Sequence record: MW233709
Length of the DNA: 64,000 nucleotides
Reading direction: 5' to 3' (one strand)
From: Escherichia phage UPEC01
Within the stretch, counting starts at the first letter, position 1. Each line of letters begins with the position of its first letter. Shown in pieces: positions 57,006 to 64,000 of the stretch. A program made the translations under genes and the position numbers. Under the pieces are notes generated by a model. That model was not told where the DNA came from. It saw only the letters and a list, made by a program, of their open reading frames with translations, and did no database searches.

Positions 57006-58139
57006 ATGGCTTATACCGTAACTATTGCTCCTTTGGCGGCTACGGCCGTTATTGGAGCAACAACCAATTTCACTGCGACCGGTTCCGGTGCTGCAGCTGA
57101 AGGTACCGAATCATTTGTCTGGACCGTTGATGGCGTTCCTCAATCTTCTGTGACTGCTGCAATGGATTATGTTGCTGTTGGTCCAGCAGGCAGTAAGACT
57201 ATTAAAGTTGTTGCAACAACTACACCAGCGGACGGCGAACCAGAAACAGCTGAAGCCGAAACAACTTTAACTATCCAGAATAAAACAATGCCTGCTATTA
57301 CATTGACTTTAGACCCGGCCTCTGTTACTAAAGAAGTGGGGCAATCTCAAGTTGTTACTGCTAACGTGACAGGCGCTCCTTCTGGTGCAACAATCGCTTA
57401 TGTTTGGAAACGAAATGCCGACGTAATCGCAGGTCAAACTGGTAAAACTATTACCGTCACCGAATCAGCAGAAGCAAATTATACATTGAACTGTGAAGTT
57501 ACTGTTTCTGCACCCGATTATAATAATGGCACCGCATCTAAAGGAGCTGCGGTAACTTTTGTTAAGAAAACTATGTCGGGTGTTTCTGTTACTTTAGCAC
57601 CAACCTCTATTAATGTTCCTGAAGGAACTCCGGCTTCATTTAAAGCAGATGTAGTTGGCGCACCGAGTGGAGCTACTTTTGCCTATTCTTGGAAGAAAGA
57701 CGGTTCTCCTGTAGTTGGCACCACGGATACTTTAGCAATCGATACAAGCGCCGAAGGTTCCCAGTTAATTGAAGTTTCTGTTGTTGTATCTGCTACAGAT
57801 TATAATCCTGTTACAGTTACCAAAACCGGTAATGTAACAGTCACGGCTAAAGTCGCACCAGTTCCAGAGGGTGAACTACCTTACGTTCATCCGCTGCCAG
57901 TTCGTAATTCAGCTTATATCTGGTGTGGTTGGTGGGTTATGGATGAAATTCAGAAAATGACTCTTGCTGGACAAGACTGGAAAACCGATGACCCAGATAG
58001 CCCGTATTATTTGCACCGATATACACTTCAAAAAATGATTACCGACTATCCAGAGGTTGATGTACAGGAATCTCGTAATGGTCGAATTATTCATCGCACC
58101 GCTTTAGAAACTGGTATTATATACGATTACGTTTATTAA
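57006..58139 (+). CDS. hoc: highly immunogenic outer capsid protein Hoc
   Basis: 377 aa; Ig-like repeats and C-terminal capsid-binding block (YNPVTVTKTGNVTVTAKVAP.PEGELPYVHPLP...AYIWCGWWVMDEIQKMT) near-identical to T4 Hoc. Confidence 0.9.
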   Translation: MAYTVTIAPLAATAVIGATTNFTATGSGAAAEGTESFVWTVDGVPQSSVTAAMDYVAVGPAGSKTIKVVATTTPADGEPETAEAETTLTIQNKTMPAITLTLDPASVTKEVGQSQVVTANVTGAPSGATIAYVWKRNADVIAGQTGKTITVTESAEANYTLNCEVTVSAPDYNNGTASKGAAVTFVKKTMSGVSVTLAPTSINVPEGTPASFKADVVGAPSGATFAYSWKKDGSPVVGTTDTLAIDTSAEGSQLIEVSVVVSATDYNPVTVTKTGNVTVTAKVAPVPEGELPYVHPLPVRNSAYIWCGWWVMDEIQKMTLAGQDWKTDDPDSPYYLHRYTLQKMITDYPEVDVQESRNGRIIHRTALETGIIYDYVY

Positions 58140-59910: not shown

Positions 59911-59940
59911 AAAAAGGGCCGCAAGGCCCTTATTCTTTTT
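59911..59940. terminator. bidirectional intrinsic terminator
   Basis: AGGGCC-GCAA-GGCCCT flanked by A-run and T-run, between convergent rnlB and gp24 paralog. Confidence 0.7.
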
Positions 59941-61213
59941 CCAGTGGCGGAAGTTTAACGCCAAGATAAGAACTCAATTGGCTTTGGTTAGCCATCTTAT
60001 CCATATCAGCCCCATCAATAAGGCGGGCTTCTTTATCGTCTTTAGCAACGGTATAGGGGTTCGCTGTCAATGCATAACGAGCTAACAGTGCAACCGTAGG
60101 CTGTAAGCTTTCAGGGTCAACAATAACCTTGAATTCTCCGACCGATGTATCCCCCTCATCATCAACTTCGCTAAGTCCTTCCGTATAAGGCGCATAATAC
60201 AAAGATGCGACCGTCTGACCTTCACCCATATCAGCATTTACACCGACAATAACATAATCACATGGACTATTCATATCTGCGTAAAGAGGCAAACCGTTCT
60301 TCAGAACACCATAGGCTAATTCATCCTGGTCTTCCTTTTTCTCAACCCAGCCAGAAGCGGCTAAAATAGCTGCACAACGGGAAGAAGCAACCGCATATGT
60401 ACCAGCAAACGAAGTCTGACGTTGAACTGCAGAATTCATTTCACACATATAATAATACAGGGTTCGTGCGCGGTCCTGTGCGTTATCATATTTCGGGTCA
60501 GTGAGATTCAACACACCTTTTTCAGAAACACCTTGTACCTTGAAGCGAGAACTAACAGTAATAAGGGATTGCAATACATCCTTATTAATTTCCTCTGCCA
60601 TTTGAATGCCGAGAATATTATCGATGAAGTCTGTTGCATCGAAACCGTTTGCTTCCAGGTCCTGAGCAAGCTCGACAGTTAAAGAAGTTTTCAACTTTCT
60701 GGATTTAACTTCAGTCTGCCATTTATCGATACGGAAACCAGCTTCAGCAATTTCAGGATGCCCCTTTTCAAATTTATCAGTGAAAGCAGCATCTGACATC
60801 ATTCTTATATGTCCAGCAGCAATGGCTTCAGAAATAACTTCACCTAAATCAGTTTCGAGTGTCCCGGCAAAGGGGGAAGCTTCCAGAACTTTGAATACAA
60901 CGCTTTCAAACTGAAACATATCGCCGACTGCATAAGCTTCATCTTTGTTCGTAAATTCTGGAATATTCTTACGCTCGAACATACCAATCTGACCTGCAAA
61001 TGTTGCTCCACCGAGATATGTCATTTTATCATCTGGGTTCAGAACACGAACACCATACAACGCTGCAACAGGCTGTGTAGTTTTCTGTTCGGCAACGAGT
61101 GCTTTAAAAATTCGTTTATTCGTGGCCTGGGTATAAGAAAGCAAATTAGGACGGGCGACCTGGTTGGCCGCCGTTAATGTTGATTCGTGAATTAGTGCGT
61201 TAATCTTTTGCAT
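59930..61213 (-). CDS. gp24-like capsid vertex protein, diverged tandem paralog
   Basis: 427 aa; alignable end-to-end with adjacent gp24 (KSRKLKT.LTVELAQD.EANGF, INKDVLQSLITVS, ANPYTVAKDDKEAR.ID) at roughly half identity. Confidence 0.8.
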   Translation of the reverse strand: MQKINALIHESTLTAANQVARPNLLSYTQATNKRIFKALVAEQKTTQPVAALYGVRVLNPDDKMTYLGGATFAGQIGMFERKNIPEFTNKDEAYAVGDMFQFESVVFKVLEASPFAGTLETDLGEVISEAIAAGHIRMMSDAAFTDKFEKGHPEIAEAGFRIDKWQTEVKSRKLKTSLTVELAQDLEANGFDATDFIDNILGIQMAEEINKDVLQSLITVSSRFKVQGVSEKGVLNLTDPKYDNAQDRARTLYYYMCEMNSAVQRQTSFAGTYAVASSRCAAILAASGWVEKKEDQDELAYGVLKNGLPLYADMNSPCDYVIVGVNADMGEGQTVASLYYAPYTEGLSEVDDEGDTSVGEFKVIVDPESLQPTVALLARYALTANPYTVAKDDKEARLIDGADMDKMANQSQLSSYLGVKLPPLEKE

Positions 61214-62494
61214 TTACGCCTCATAAATGATTGGCGGAAGTTTAACACCGAGCAGATAAGACATATTGCTCTGACCGGCCATTAAATCCATATTGGTTGC
61301 ATCGATAATACGAGCTTCTTTATCGTCTTTAGCAACGGTGTAAGGGTTAGCTGAAAGTGCATAACGAACCATCAAAGAGATAGCTGGTTGCAAACTGTCA
61401 GGGTCCACAATGACTTTAAACGCGCCTACATGCTCTTCATCATCTAAGTCCAGGCCTTCGGTATAAGGAGCATAGAAGATTGAGCCTACGACTTCGTTTC
61501 CGCCGTAATTTTCTTTAACGCCAACGGTTACATAATCCAATGGACTGTTAACATCACAGAATACAGGAAGACCATTAATCAAATAACCGTACGCTGTTTC
61601 AGGAAGCCACTGTTCGTCTTCAGGTTTATGCTTCAGCCAGCCAGAACCGGCCAACATAGCAGCAACACGGCTGGAGGCAACAACAAAGGTACCGGAATAA
61701 GATGTAGTTTTCTGAATTTCGGAGTTCATTTCGCAAACCAGTTCGTACAGTTTACGTGCGCCTTCTGGAGCTGCATCATATGTTAAATCGATGGTGCCAT
61801 TGTCAGAAACACCAGTTACTTTATAACGCTTGGAAACGGTAATAAGAGACTGAAGAACATCTTTGTTAATTTCATCTGCCATAATAGTAGCAAGCAGGTC
61901 TTCCAGGAAAGCAGGAGCATTAAAGCCATTTGCTTCCATATCCTGAGCAAGCTCAACAGTTAATGCAGTTTTCAATTTACGGGATTTAACAGGAGCATTC
62001 CATTTATTAACCTGGAATACAGCGTTACTAATTTCAACATCACCGGCTTCAAATTTCTCGGTGTGCGCTGCATCAGGAACCAAACGAATGGTTAATGCAA
62101 TAAGACCTTCTTGCAGAACATCTGATAATACAGTTTCGGTAGTCGATGCAAATGGATTATCAACCAGAGCTTTGTAAACGATATTTTGGTATTTTACATA
62201 TTCGCCTTTAGCAACAGGCTGAGTGGCTGTAGTTAATTCTGGAATAGTTGTACGGTCTTTAGAACCGACTTCGCCTCCATAAGTAGCGCCCGTCTGGAAA
62301 CTGAATTCATTATCAGGAGTAAGATATTTAACACCATACAGTGCAGCAACAGGCTGGTTAGTACGTTGTTCAGCGATGATATCGCGGTAAATCAATTTAG
62401 TCGTAGCGCGGGTCAAAGCAACAAGATTCGGGCGGCCCAATGAGTTGCTGGTAGTAATAGTTGACTCGCGCAGTAATTTGTTAATCTTTGCCAT
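61214..62494 (-). CDS. 24: capsid vertex protein gp24
   Basis: 426 aa; near-identical blocks to T4 gp24 (MAKIN.LLREST.T.SNS.GRPNLVALTRATTKLIY, QPVAA.YG.KYL.PDNEF). Confidence 0.9.
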   Translation of the reverse strand: MAKINKLLRESTITTSNSLGRPNLVALTRATTKLIYRDIIAEQRTNQPVAALYGVKYLTPDNEFSFQTGATYGGEVGSKDRTTIPELTTATQPVAKGEYVKYQNIVYKALVDNPFASTTETVLSDVLQEGLIALTIRLVPDAAHTEKFEAGDVEISNAVFQVNKWNAPVKSRKLKTALTVELAQDMEANGFNAPAFLEDLLATIMADEINKDVLQSLITVSKRYKVTGVSDNGTIDLTYDAAPEGARKLYELVCEMNSEIQKTTSYSGTFVVASSRVAAMLAGSGWLKHKPEDEQWLPETAYGYLINGLPVFCDVNSPLDYVTVGVKENYGGNEVVGSIFYAPYTEGLDLDDEEHVGAFKVIVDPDSLQPAISLMVRYALSANPYTVAKDDKEARIIDATNMDLMAGQSNMSYLLGVKLPPIIYEA

Positions 62495-62520
62495 TTGCGC
62501 TTTCCTTTTGTGATATACTT

Positions 62521-62528
62521 TATTTATA
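62521..62528 (-). promoter_or_regulatory. late promoter for gene 24
   Basis: TATAAATA on - strand upstream of gene 24 start at 62494. Confidence 0.6.
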
Positions 62529-62534
62529 AAAGTT

Positions 62535-62564
62535 GTTTACAACCAGATTAAGATAAGACATAAT
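62535..62564 (+). promoter_or_regulatory. early promoter cassette
   Basis: GTTTACA ... CATAAT; conserved block 62565-62582. Confidence 0.6.
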
Positions 62565-62605
62565 GATTCCATACTGAGTTAACAAACAAAACCTGGAGTT
62601 TAAAA

Positions 62606-62887
62606 ATGAACAAAGCAACTTTCCTTCTGAACACCTTTAAAAAATTGGAAATTGAAGTTATTGCATTGGTCAACAAATACCCAAATGGCGTTAATGGTAA
62701 TGCTCTGAACAAACTAGTTAAAAAATATGAAAACTTAGCATATGACACTGATTTCTGGTGGAATGGTAATTATTCTACTCACACTAAAGATAAAAATGGT
62801 AACTGGTTGAAACTTCAAGAAAACAATGTTAACTTCAGAGACCTCATCAAGCGCCGGGTAGAAGTTCATTTAAATGGTATGGTATGA
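62606..62887 (+). CDS. hypothetical protein (93 aa)
   Basis: ORF after early promoter 62535-62564, flanked by bidirectional terminator; occupies T4 segD position between genes 23 and 24. Confidence 0.5.
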   Translation: MNKATFLLNTFKKLEIEVIALVNKYPNGVNGNALNKLVKKYENLAYDTDFWWNGNYSTHTKDKNGNWLKLQENNVNFRDLIKRRVEVHLNGMV

Positions 62888-62892
62888 AAACA

Positions 62893-62920
62893 AGAAAGGG
62901 ACCTCAAGGGTCCCTTTTTA
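62893..62920. terminator. bidirectional intrinsic terminator
   Basis: GGGACC-TCAA-GGGTCCC flanked by A/T runs, between convergent 62606 ORF and gene 23. Confidence 0.7.
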
Positions 62921-62937: not shown

Positions 62938-64000
62938 TTAAATTCCTTTAACATATACGCGGCGGAAGTAACCGTTCAAGCCGAGGCTGTTAACGATGTC
63001 CGGCATGCCGTTTTGAATACGCTTGGTCGGAGCCTGAGCTGTCGGGTCAGCGAACGGGTTAATACCGATACCGTAACGGGTTTTGAAGCCCATAACCGGC
63101 TGGAAGTTTTTCGGGTCAGAGCCACGCAGCGGAGTCAGTGCAACATATGGTGCATAGTAGATACCAGCATCCATTTCGTTAGCGCCTTTGTAACCGATGG
63201 TGAAGTAGTCTGCACGAGCATACTGGTCGATATAGACACGGTATTTGCCACCCAGAACACCAGCGAACACAGCTTTAGTGGTGTCAACGTTGAAACCTTT
63301 ACCCAGACCCTGAGCAGCATAAGATACGGAGGTATCAACTGCAGCCAGTACGTTAACTACGTTACGGGAAGCGATGATGAAGTTACCTGCACCACGGCCA
63401 GTCTGACGAGCGATTTCAGCAGCTTCTTTGTCAATCTGGAACAGTAAAGCTTTGAAGCTTTCACCAGCCCAACGAGCACCACGGATATCAATCGGGTCCT
63501 GGAAGTCAAACACACCAGCTTTAGCGCCAACGGTGTTGGTCATACCAGATTTACCAACCTGAGCGGAGTAGTTAATCCAATCGATAACTTCGCGGTTGAT
63601 TTCCAGCATAATTTCGGTAGCCAGAATACCACTCAATTCAGCATCAGCATCCATACCGTGGACAGCGCGGAGGTCCTGCGCCAGTTCGATAGAGTAGCTT
63701 GCTTTAAGCTGACGGGATTTAGCTTCGATAACTTGTTTGTCGATGCGGAAGCCCATTTCGTTCCACGGGTTATCAGTAGAACCGTTAAAGCCTTCCTGCA
63801 ATTCGGCGATAGAGGTAGCCATACCTTCAGCGATTTCTGCCAGCTTACCAGCTTCGAGCAGTTTGGTAACTTCAGCGTCAAGTTTAGCAGCATCAGTAGC
63901 GGCGGCATCGACGGTTACAGCTTCAACAGCCTGGTAGTGCGCAGAACCGGTTGCTTCGAAGAAGTGTGAATAAATTTTACCAACGGTAAGAACTTTGCTT
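62938..64000 (-). CDS. 23: major capsid protein gp23 (C-terminal part; 5-prime end beyond window)
   Basis: Reading frame open to window edge; translated region matches T4 gp23 (...HYQAVEAVTVDAAATDAAKLDAEVTKLLEAGKLAEIAEGMATSIAELQEGFNGSTDNPWNEMGFRIDKQVIEAKSRQLKA...RRVYVKGI). Confidence 0.95.
   Translation of the reverse strand, partial: SKVLTVGKIYSHFFEATGSAHYQAVEAVTVDAAATDAAKLDAEVTKLLEAGKLAEIAEGMATSIAELQEGFNGSTDNPWNEMGFRIDKQVIEAKSRQLKASYSIELAQDLRAVHGMDADAELSGILATEIMLEINREVIDWINYSAQVGKSGMTNTVGAKAGVFDFQDPIDIRGARWAGESFKALLFQIDKEAAEIARQTGRGAGNFIIASRNVVNVLAAVDTSVSYAAQGLGKGFNVDTTKAVFAGVLGGKYRVYIDQYARADYFTIGYKGANEMDAGIYYAPYVALTPLRGSDPKNFQPVMGFKTRYGIGINPFADPTAQAPTKRIQNGMPDIVNSLGLNGYFRRVYVKGI

Follow-up and report, generated by a model that had tools for sequence, protein, structure and literature searches.

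A tandem pair of gp24-type capsid vertex protein genes in Escherichia phage UPEC01 and its relatives, and the probable role of the second copy

Phage T4 is the reference model of prolate head assembly, and pentamers of its gp24 protein occupy the 11 non-portal capsid vertices. The window analysed here, a stretch of 64,000 nucleotides (nt) of Escherichia phage UPEC01 (sequence record MW233709), contains two gp24-type genes, which we name 24-I (the upstream, canonical copy) and 24-II (the downstream copy). What would a phage head do with a second vertex protein? A first-pass annotation of the window had asked whether it leads to a mixed or alternative composition of the pentamers, which is a legitimate question. 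The results described below lead us to propose, with a probability of roughly 0.6, that the two genes constitute an old, co-inherited vertex-gene pair in which 24-II encodes a second, co-expressed vertex subunit that probably forms its own pentamers.

The positions of the genes and of the signals around them are given in Table 1. Determination of their exact limits confirmed the initial description of two gp24-type open reading frames (ORFs) of 426 and 427 amino acids (aa) lying head to tail. Both are on the minus strand, which that description had not stated; the TAA stop codon of 24-I (61214-61216) abuts the ATG start codon of 24-II (61211-61213), leaving 0 nt between the genes. The two proteins could be aligned from end to end with 56% identity and 75% positives; since the E value of this alignment is 1e-173, their similarity is far above chance, and the downstream copy had thus been correctly described as alignable throughout yet diverged. 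Both matched T4 gp24 (PDB 1yue) over their full length (residues 1-424), with E values of 4e-195 for 24-I and 4e-148 for 24-II, but gp23 chains were matched just weakly (E about 1e-11 to 1e-12, residues 155-393). In Pfam family PF07068 (Gp23 family) they scored 328 and 327 bits, respectively, and both are included in PHROG 138. Judged by these matches, 24-I and 24-II belong to the gp24 branch of PF07068 and are nearer to gp24 than to gp23. Overall identity between 24-I and gp24 of Tequatrovirus AR1 is about 70%, and about 84% of the first 64 residues are identical between 24-I and T4 gp24, so that it had been fair to call the N-terminus of the upstream copy near-identical to that of T4 gp24.

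Table 1. Positions in the window of the 24-I/24-II pair, its signals and the features mentioned in the text (RBS, ribosome binding site)
Feature	Position	Strand	Basis or remark
24-I, canonical gp24 capsid vertex protein, 426 aa	61214-62494	minus	ORF, 1yue match, clade
24-II, second gp24-type protein, 427 aa	59930-61213	minus	ORF, 1yue match, model
T4-type late promoter TATAAATA (predicted)	62521-62528	minus	27-34 nt upstream of 24-I start
RBS of 24-I, AAGGAAA	62501-62507	minus	read directly; aaggaaagcgcaATG conserved across lineages
RBS of 24-II, GAGG	61219-61222	minus	5 nt before ATG, within final 24-I codons
Bidirectional hairpin terminator (predicted), AAGGGCC-GCAA-GGCCCTT	59914-59931		T-runs on both strands
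Gene 23 (major capsid protein), 3' part	62938-64000	minus	runs past window end; 99.4% identical to VR7 gp23
Terminator-like hairpin by gene 23	62895-62917
93-aa ORF	62606-62887	plus	between gene 23 and 24-I
Sigma-70-like promoter TTTACA-17-CATAAT	62536-62564	plus	10/12; upstream of 93-aa ORF
hoc-like gene	57006-58139	plus	Ig-like domains

The gp24 pair is an already annotated trait of a group of phages and no peculiarity of this genome. It is annotated as 24(1)/24(2) in VR7 (NC_014792), as 24a/24b in JS98 (EF469154), as 'capsid vertex protein I/II' in VR20, VR25, VR26 and CJ20, and as 'head vertex protein I/II' in Salmonella phage CGG4-1. Two vertex proteins are also annotated in Klebsiella phage F48 (Marfavirus) and, as 'capsid vertex proteins', in Salmonella phage CF-SP2 (Gelderlandvirus). 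For Salmonella phages S16 and Melville, a duplication in tandem of the gene for the capsid vertex protein was mentioned in a genome announcement (PMC6486254). The Melville pair is ATN93139/ATN93140, and ATN93140 shares a 90%-identity cluster with the 24-II proteins of Gelderlandvirus. The protein identical to 24-II is present in NCBI as QQG31021.1 (phage UPEC01) and under other entries, and 24-II of the window falls into one 90%-identity cluster with JS98 24b and VR20 'capsid vertex protein II'. At the level of the genes the observation is therefore already known, since the GenBank genomes in which the pair is annotated number about 90 or more.

The comparison with other T4-like genomes that had been recommended shows that the same pair recurs in Gaprivervirus, Dhakavirus, Gelderlandvirus, part of Marfavirus and the Erwinia phage FBB1-like phages. 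A tblastn search with 24-II matched 1,417 phage records, and identity reached at least 80% in 93 of them. Among the records listed, the five with the highest identity had two matching places each, and the single-copy genera match once: Jiaodavirus at 64%, Karamvirus at 58%, Tequatrovirus and Mosigvirus at 55%, Kanagawavirus at 53% and Acinetobacter phages at 48-49%. In IMG/VR, 24-I was located directly upstream at all 16 loci having a 24-II-type gene (at least 78% identity). A collection of 5.8 billion proteins contained many metagenomic 24-II proteins at 77-90% identity as well as a deeper group at 66-69% identity, which includes Erwinia phage FBB1; on contigs of this deeper group the order 23, 24-I, 24-II is kept, with a 1-nt overlap. 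Taking together the window, 5 GenBank records, the 16 IMG/VR loci and 6 metagenome/FBB1-like loci (the IMG/VR set partly overlaps the GenBank phages), 24-I was found directly upstream, with a tightly coupled junction, at 28 of the 28 examined 24-II loci, and no genome with 24-II but without 24-I was encountered among them. The contrast with T4 drawn by the first-pass annotation is right in that T4 has a single gp24, but the pair is not a notable departure, since it is conserved across whole genera.

On FBB1-like contigs and related ones from metagenomes, 24-II is separated from the convergent rnlB block by two additional ORFs of the same orientation (about 330-350 and 165-280 aa; L041:2676-4506, L042:4890-6427 and L043:5345-6900). 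One of them has a faint collagen match. The window lacks both ORFs, which might likewise have a role in the head.

The signals flanking the pair are those expected of a single unit. One match to the T4-type late promoter motif TATAAATA was found in region 59930-62900, before 24-I; the stretch from gene 23 to the end of 24-II has no second one, and none precedes 24-II. The GAGG that had been attributed to the downstream copy was located 5 nt before its ATG (Table 1). The hairpin at the other end is common to the convergent gene rnlB (plus strand) and the 24-I/24-II transcript (minus strand). The same arrangement was observed in the 10 lineages compared: the late promoter is present at equal distance before 24-I in all of them, 24-I is preceded by AAGGAAA or GAGGAAA as RBS, the GAGG usually lies within the last codons of 24-I, and a G+C-rich hairpin is located directly 3' of 24-II in every lineage. 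The junction between the genes reads TAAATG, TAATG (1-nt overlap), ATGA (4-nt overlap) or TAATATG, and the reading-frame relation between 24-I and 24-II is consequently not conserved. The window conforms to this module layout, in which 24-I is followed by 24-II with a junction ranging from a 4-nt overlap to a 1-nt gap, and which has one promoter and one terminator. Such a layout would be expected if both genes were transcribed late into one bicistronic mRNA and their translation were coupled. In the 64-kb window as a whole, TATAAATA occurs 12 times versus 4.6 expected, a number reached by none of 100 shuffles; this excess fits T4-type late promoters scattered across the window.

Both copies are under strong purifying selection. 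Nei-Gojobori estimates of the ratio of nonsynonymous (dN) to synonymous (dS) divergence ranged from 0.02 to 0.06: they were 0.051 for 24-I and 0.026 for 24-II between the window and VR7, 0.053 and 0.020 between the window and JS98, and 0.036 and 0.063 between JS98 and CF-SP2. Pairwise identity and dN/dS had been named by the first-pass annotation as a check on its reading, and, as evidence against it, the detection of one paralogue in virions with inactivating changes in the other; the 24-II ORF was intact in all lineages examined. 24-II looks like a functional gene. At the protein level it is conserved at least as well as 24-I. Compared with VR7, 24-I is 96.7% identical to 24(1) and 24-II 98.4% identical to 24(2); the corresponding values are 90.1% and 95.5% (24b) for JS98, and 73% and 80% for F48. 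Identity of 24-II to its Gelderlandvirus and FBB1 counterparts is 84% and 69%, respectively. Between 24-I and 24-II of one genome, by contrast, synonymous sites have reached saturation (dS 1.4-2.8, with a dN of about 0.37), and the longest nucleotide run that the two genes have in common is 26 nt, located in the conserved TVAKDDKEA motif. The saturated dS and the short shared run rule out both a recent duplication and gene conversion.

The origin of the pair was analysed with a neighbour-joining tree on corrected distances of 39 gp24 sequences (100 bootstraps). All 24-II copies, which come from at least six lineages, were monophyletic (100% bootstrap). 24-I fell into one group with gp24 of the single-copy genera Tequatrovirus (T4), Mosigvirus, Karamvirus and Kanagawavirus (99%). 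The 24-I and 24-II subtrees have a mirrored topology, with the FBB1-like group basal in both, and the T4-type single genes are nested between 24-I of the FBB1 group and 24-I of Gaprivervirus, Dhakavirus, Gelderlandvirus and Marfavirus (98%). In none of the 100 bootstraps were 24-I and 24-II sisters. Discrete characters agree weakly with the tree: two columns join the canonical clade against 24-II plus the outgroups and six are unique to 24-II, and in the same alignment no column has a derived state exclusive to 24-I and 24-II. According to this phylogeny 24-I is the orthologue of T4 gp24, and the downstream copy that of the lineage annotated as 24(2), 24b or vertex protein II. The simplest reading is that the split between 24-I and 24-II is older than the radiation of enterobacterial Tevenvirinae gp24. 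Hence, the initial view of the locus as a gene duplication stands as far as the presence of tandem gp24 paralogues is concerned, but not as a recent event in this phage, given the dS values and the fact that the two copies are never sisters.

The single gp24 of T4 probably results from a secondary loss of 24-II, which is the more likely explanation because T4 gp24 is placed inside the 24-I lineage. The contrast with T4 is therefore better reversed, in that it is T4 that probably lost the second gene. An alternative to loss is the lateral movement of a two-gene cassette. A gp23 tree, used as a proxy of the species tree, had a backbone that was not resolved (bootstraps 6-68%), and it does not decide between loss and transfer.

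Two exchanges may have affected genes of this family. In Klebsiella phage AmPh_EK29, the only gp24 gene is of the Kanagawavirus type, and a segD homing endonuclease gene lies between genes 23 and 24. It belongs to the same species as F48 (Marfavirus F48) and has the same gp23 type, but F48 possesses both 24-I and 24-II. Local swapping of the vertex module is thus possible, and a viable head apparently does not require 24-II; the configuration suggests a homing-associated replacement of the vertex module. The other case is the single gp24 of Klebsiella phage phiA85 (Jiaodavirus; L005:3501-4781), which has a mosaic appearance. Identity to T4 gp24 is 88-94% over the first ~80 alignment columns (about 55 residues), columns 120-340 are nearer to 24-II than to 24-I, and columns 360-420 are again T4-like. 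This gene could have arisen from recombination between a 24-I-type and a 24-II-type gene. A sister relationship of 24-II and Jiaodavirus gp24, obtained with 88% bootstrap when 22 taxa were used, was discarded, as its support dropped to 5-33% with more taxa.

The 24-II protein retains the features of a gp24. During maturation of the T4 head, gp23 loses 65 N-terminal residues, compared with 10 for gp24. The 10-residue propeptide of T4 gp24 is removed by the gp21 prohead protease, which cleaves after (L/I)-x-E (PMC9546572). The corresponding putative propeptides are MAKINKLLRE in 24-I and MQKINALIHE in 24-II; they carry the motif at residues 8-10 (LRE and IHE, respectively) and are followed by Ser11 in both. 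The N-terminal pattern M-x-K-I-x-x-L-(I/L)-x-E|S-T is kept by all aligned 24-II orthologues, which suggests that 24-II may be cleaved by the prohead protease in the same way as T4 gp24. An AlphaFold2 model of 24-II was obtained from a 58-sequence alignment, with a predicted local distance difference test (pLDDT) score of 76 and a predicted template modelling (pTM) score of 0.72. Its best match was in-capsid T4 gp24* (5vf3_a; TM-scores 0.85/0.87 over 418 columns, 55% identity), followed by 7vrt and then 1yue; the TM-score was about 0.6 against gp23* (22% identity) and about 0.38-0.56 against HK97 gp5. The model thus predicts an HK97 fold with a T4-type insertion domain for 24-II. 24-I, being about 70% identical to gp24, is expected to have the gp24 form of this fold.

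The positions at which the paralogues differ were identified by comparing alignment columns of 11 24-II proteins, 11 24-I proteins and 5 single-copy canonical gp24s. Nine of the 128 columns that are invariant within both groups differ between 24-I and 24-II. Six of these fixed differences lie within T4 residues 21-57 (V25L, T32N, L34R, I39L, K56R and Y57V), and they are enriched in residues 11-70 (6/24 columns versus 3/102 elsewhere; Fisher p 0.0015). The positions diagnostic of the paralogues are 25, 32, 34, 39, 56, 57, 108, 244 and 335 in T4 numbering. In region 21-40, the identity among 24-I proteins is 0.88 and that among 24-II proteins 0.86, compared with 0.43 between the two groups; each of the two lineages thus strictly maintains a sequence of its own. 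Between-paralogue identity is 0.70 in the spine-helix region of the P domain and 0.69 at the C-terminus, and the insertion domain is variable in all groups. In the expanded T4 head, residues 26-29 of gp24* pair, as parallel beta strands, with an insertion-domain linker that belongs to the adjacent subunit of the same pentamer, and residues 11-20 extend onto the neighbouring gp23 hexamer (PMC9546572). The contact between subunits of a pentamer may thus be paralogue-specific.

We propose the following scenario for the pair. One late bicistronic message, extending from the TATAAATA promoter to the hairpin behind 24-II, would cover both genes, and translation of 24-II would be coupled to that of 24-I through the TAA|ATG junction and the GAGG 5 nt upstream of it. 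Because 24-II has kept a gp24-form HK97 fold and the (L/I)-x-E propeptide, it is expected to enter the prohead shell and to be processed like gp24, thereby becoming a second vertex subunit. Separate 24-I and 24-II homopentamers would share the 11 non-portal vertices; they are favoured over random mixed pentamers because the subunit-pairing segment of T4 is sharply paralogue-specific. The observations underlying this scenario concern gene structure, conservation, purifying selection, fold, cleavage motif and phylogeny. From them we infer transcription, coupling, cleavage, presence in the virion, location at vertices and the preference for homopentamers. Several points weigh against it. Our literature search, which did not include the genome papers of JS98 and VR7 (the latter reportedly with virion mass spectrometry), found no virion mass spectrometry, genetics or electron cryo-microscopy for either copy in two-copy phages, and the paper on Klebsiella phage F48 does not mention the vertex genes. 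The copy of the PDB that was searched contained no 24-II-type structure, the close matches all being T4 itself. 24-II is apparently dispensable, as EK29, T4, Mosigvirus, Karamvirus and Kanagawavirus have a single gp24. The argument for homopentamers is based on substitutions placed on the T4 structure by alignment. Finally, the trees were made with a distance method, and the long stem branch of 24-II could pull this lineage artificially deep.

A more specific version of the same idea, which we consider possible but rather unlikely, is that the two-gene state is ancestral in enterobacterial T4-like phages, that T4 has been simplified, and that 24-I and 24-II homopentamers occupy different classes of vertices of the prolate head, one kind being placed, for instance, at the apical vertex on the five-fold axis and the other in the two rings of five. 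Alternatively, 24-I and 24-II could be mixed at every vertex, in a proportion that is either fixed or random. Such heteropentamers would be consistent with the predicted co-located and roughly matched synthesis from one mRNA by coupled translation, with the likeness of the P-domain spine helix and the C-terminus in the two proteins, and with the fact that 24-I and 24-II always co-occur. A symmetric 1:1 mix is impossible in a pentamer, though, and the pairing segment (aa 26-29 in T4; PMC9546572) lies where the paralogues are most differentiated and yet conserved within each lineage, which fits self-matched interfaces; we regard mixed vertices as improbable. The same holds for a role of 24-II outside the mature head, for example as an assembly factor (a nucleator of vertices, or a contact to the scaffold, removed at a later stage) or as a decoy directed at a host defence that senses capsid proteins. 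Detection of 24-II in virions was not found in the literature, and a single gp24 suffices for T4, for many relatives and, within the F48 species, for EK29, as such a role would allow. On the other hand, the full gp24 architecture, comprising P, A and insertion domains and the cleavage motif, is kept at a dN/dS of about 0.02-0.06, and it is unlikely that a decoy or transient factor would retain every capsid-building element so tightly.

The two remaining possibilities concern the gene itself. That 24-II would be a redundant or decaying recent duplicate without a function of its own could be suspected from its dispensability in some lineages, as judged from single-copy relatives. This is very improbable: all lineages examined have an intact ORF, dN/dS is low (0.02-0.06), conservation equals or exceeds what is observed for 24-I, and the saturated dS, the 26-nt longest common run and the monophyly of 24-II in at least six lineages do not fit a recent origin. 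As for a fusion of 24-I and 24-II by stop-codon readthrough, the two genes are indeed contiguous and in frame in the window, VR7 and JS98, being parted by TAA alone. The other junctions (TAATG, ATGA and TAATATG), however, shift 24-II to a different frame, and 24-II is equipped with a separate ATG and GAGG as well as an entire N-terminal propeptide. The non-conserved frame relation at the junction thus excludes readthrough for practical purposes.

Compared with known systems, the window shows no substantive difference from the pairs of VR7, JS98 and S16-like phages: over this region it is about 96% identical at the nucleotide level to the nearest records, and the genes, their order and their position (23, a small reverse ORF, 24-I, 24-II and convergent rnlB) are the same. 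T4 gp24 (1yue; in the capsid 5vf3, 7vs5 and 7vrt) is a full-length homologue of both proteins and resembles them in its 10-residue propeptide with (L/I)xE and its late promoter (both predicted in the window) and in the place of its gene just downstream of gene 23. T4 differs in having one gp24 gene, with segD between genes 23 and 24, and in lacking the 24-II lineage, which is about 55% identical and has fixed changes in residues 21-70. A broader parallel is the paralogy of gp23 and gp24, in which duplication of an HK97-fold shell protein was followed by specialisation for a position in the lattice. However, the identity of gp23 to gp24 is about 22%, and their different positions, in hexamers and pentamers respectively, are proven; 24-I and 24-II are 56% identical, and any difference in position between them would be a prediction. 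According to a review, gp24 was added relatively recently and its function can be bypassed (PMC3012670), and this bypass by mutants of gene 23 parallels the apparent dispensability of 24-II. If 24-II is truly a second vertex subunit in these relatives, the T4 picture of eleven identical gp24 pentamers would not be general, and if the two proteins occupied different vertex classes, vertex identity would be genetically encoded, as opposed to uniform in T4. The phylogeny suggests that T4 lost a component that many relatives retain. Two-copy phages such as JS98, VR7 and S16 are already in culture, and VR phages grow at low temperature.

The window belongs to a VR7-like coliphage of the genus Gaprivervirus. 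At the nucleotide level, the 3.1-kb region with the pair has 94-96% identity to Gaprivervirus coliphages, among them CJ20, ECML-359, TH22, UPEC07 and VR20; to Dhakavirus (JS98 group) its identity is about 82%. The gene order is of the T4 type: uvsW (minus) is followed by the inh-like and hoc-like genes, 24.3 (DUF2774), 24.2 and rnlB (all plus), and then by 24-II and 24-I (minus), with rnlB convergent with 24-II; beyond 24-I lie a small reverse ORF (plus) and gene 23 (minus). A truncation of gene 23, which its 294-aa entry in the ORF list might suggest, was rejected, as translation is uninterrupted and the gene leaves the window. The small reverse ORF encodes 93 aa and occupies the place where T4 has the segD homing endonuclease gene. 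It belongs to PHROG 6003 (unknown function; E 9e-47), gave no match in a Pfam search, and is conserved as VR7ORF190c and JS98 orf173. At the position of the hoc-like gene of the window, VR7 has an opposite-strand gene, VR7ORF196w, annotated as a collagen-repeat 'tail fiber protein'. Closely related Gapriverviruses thus differ in the head-decoration slot.

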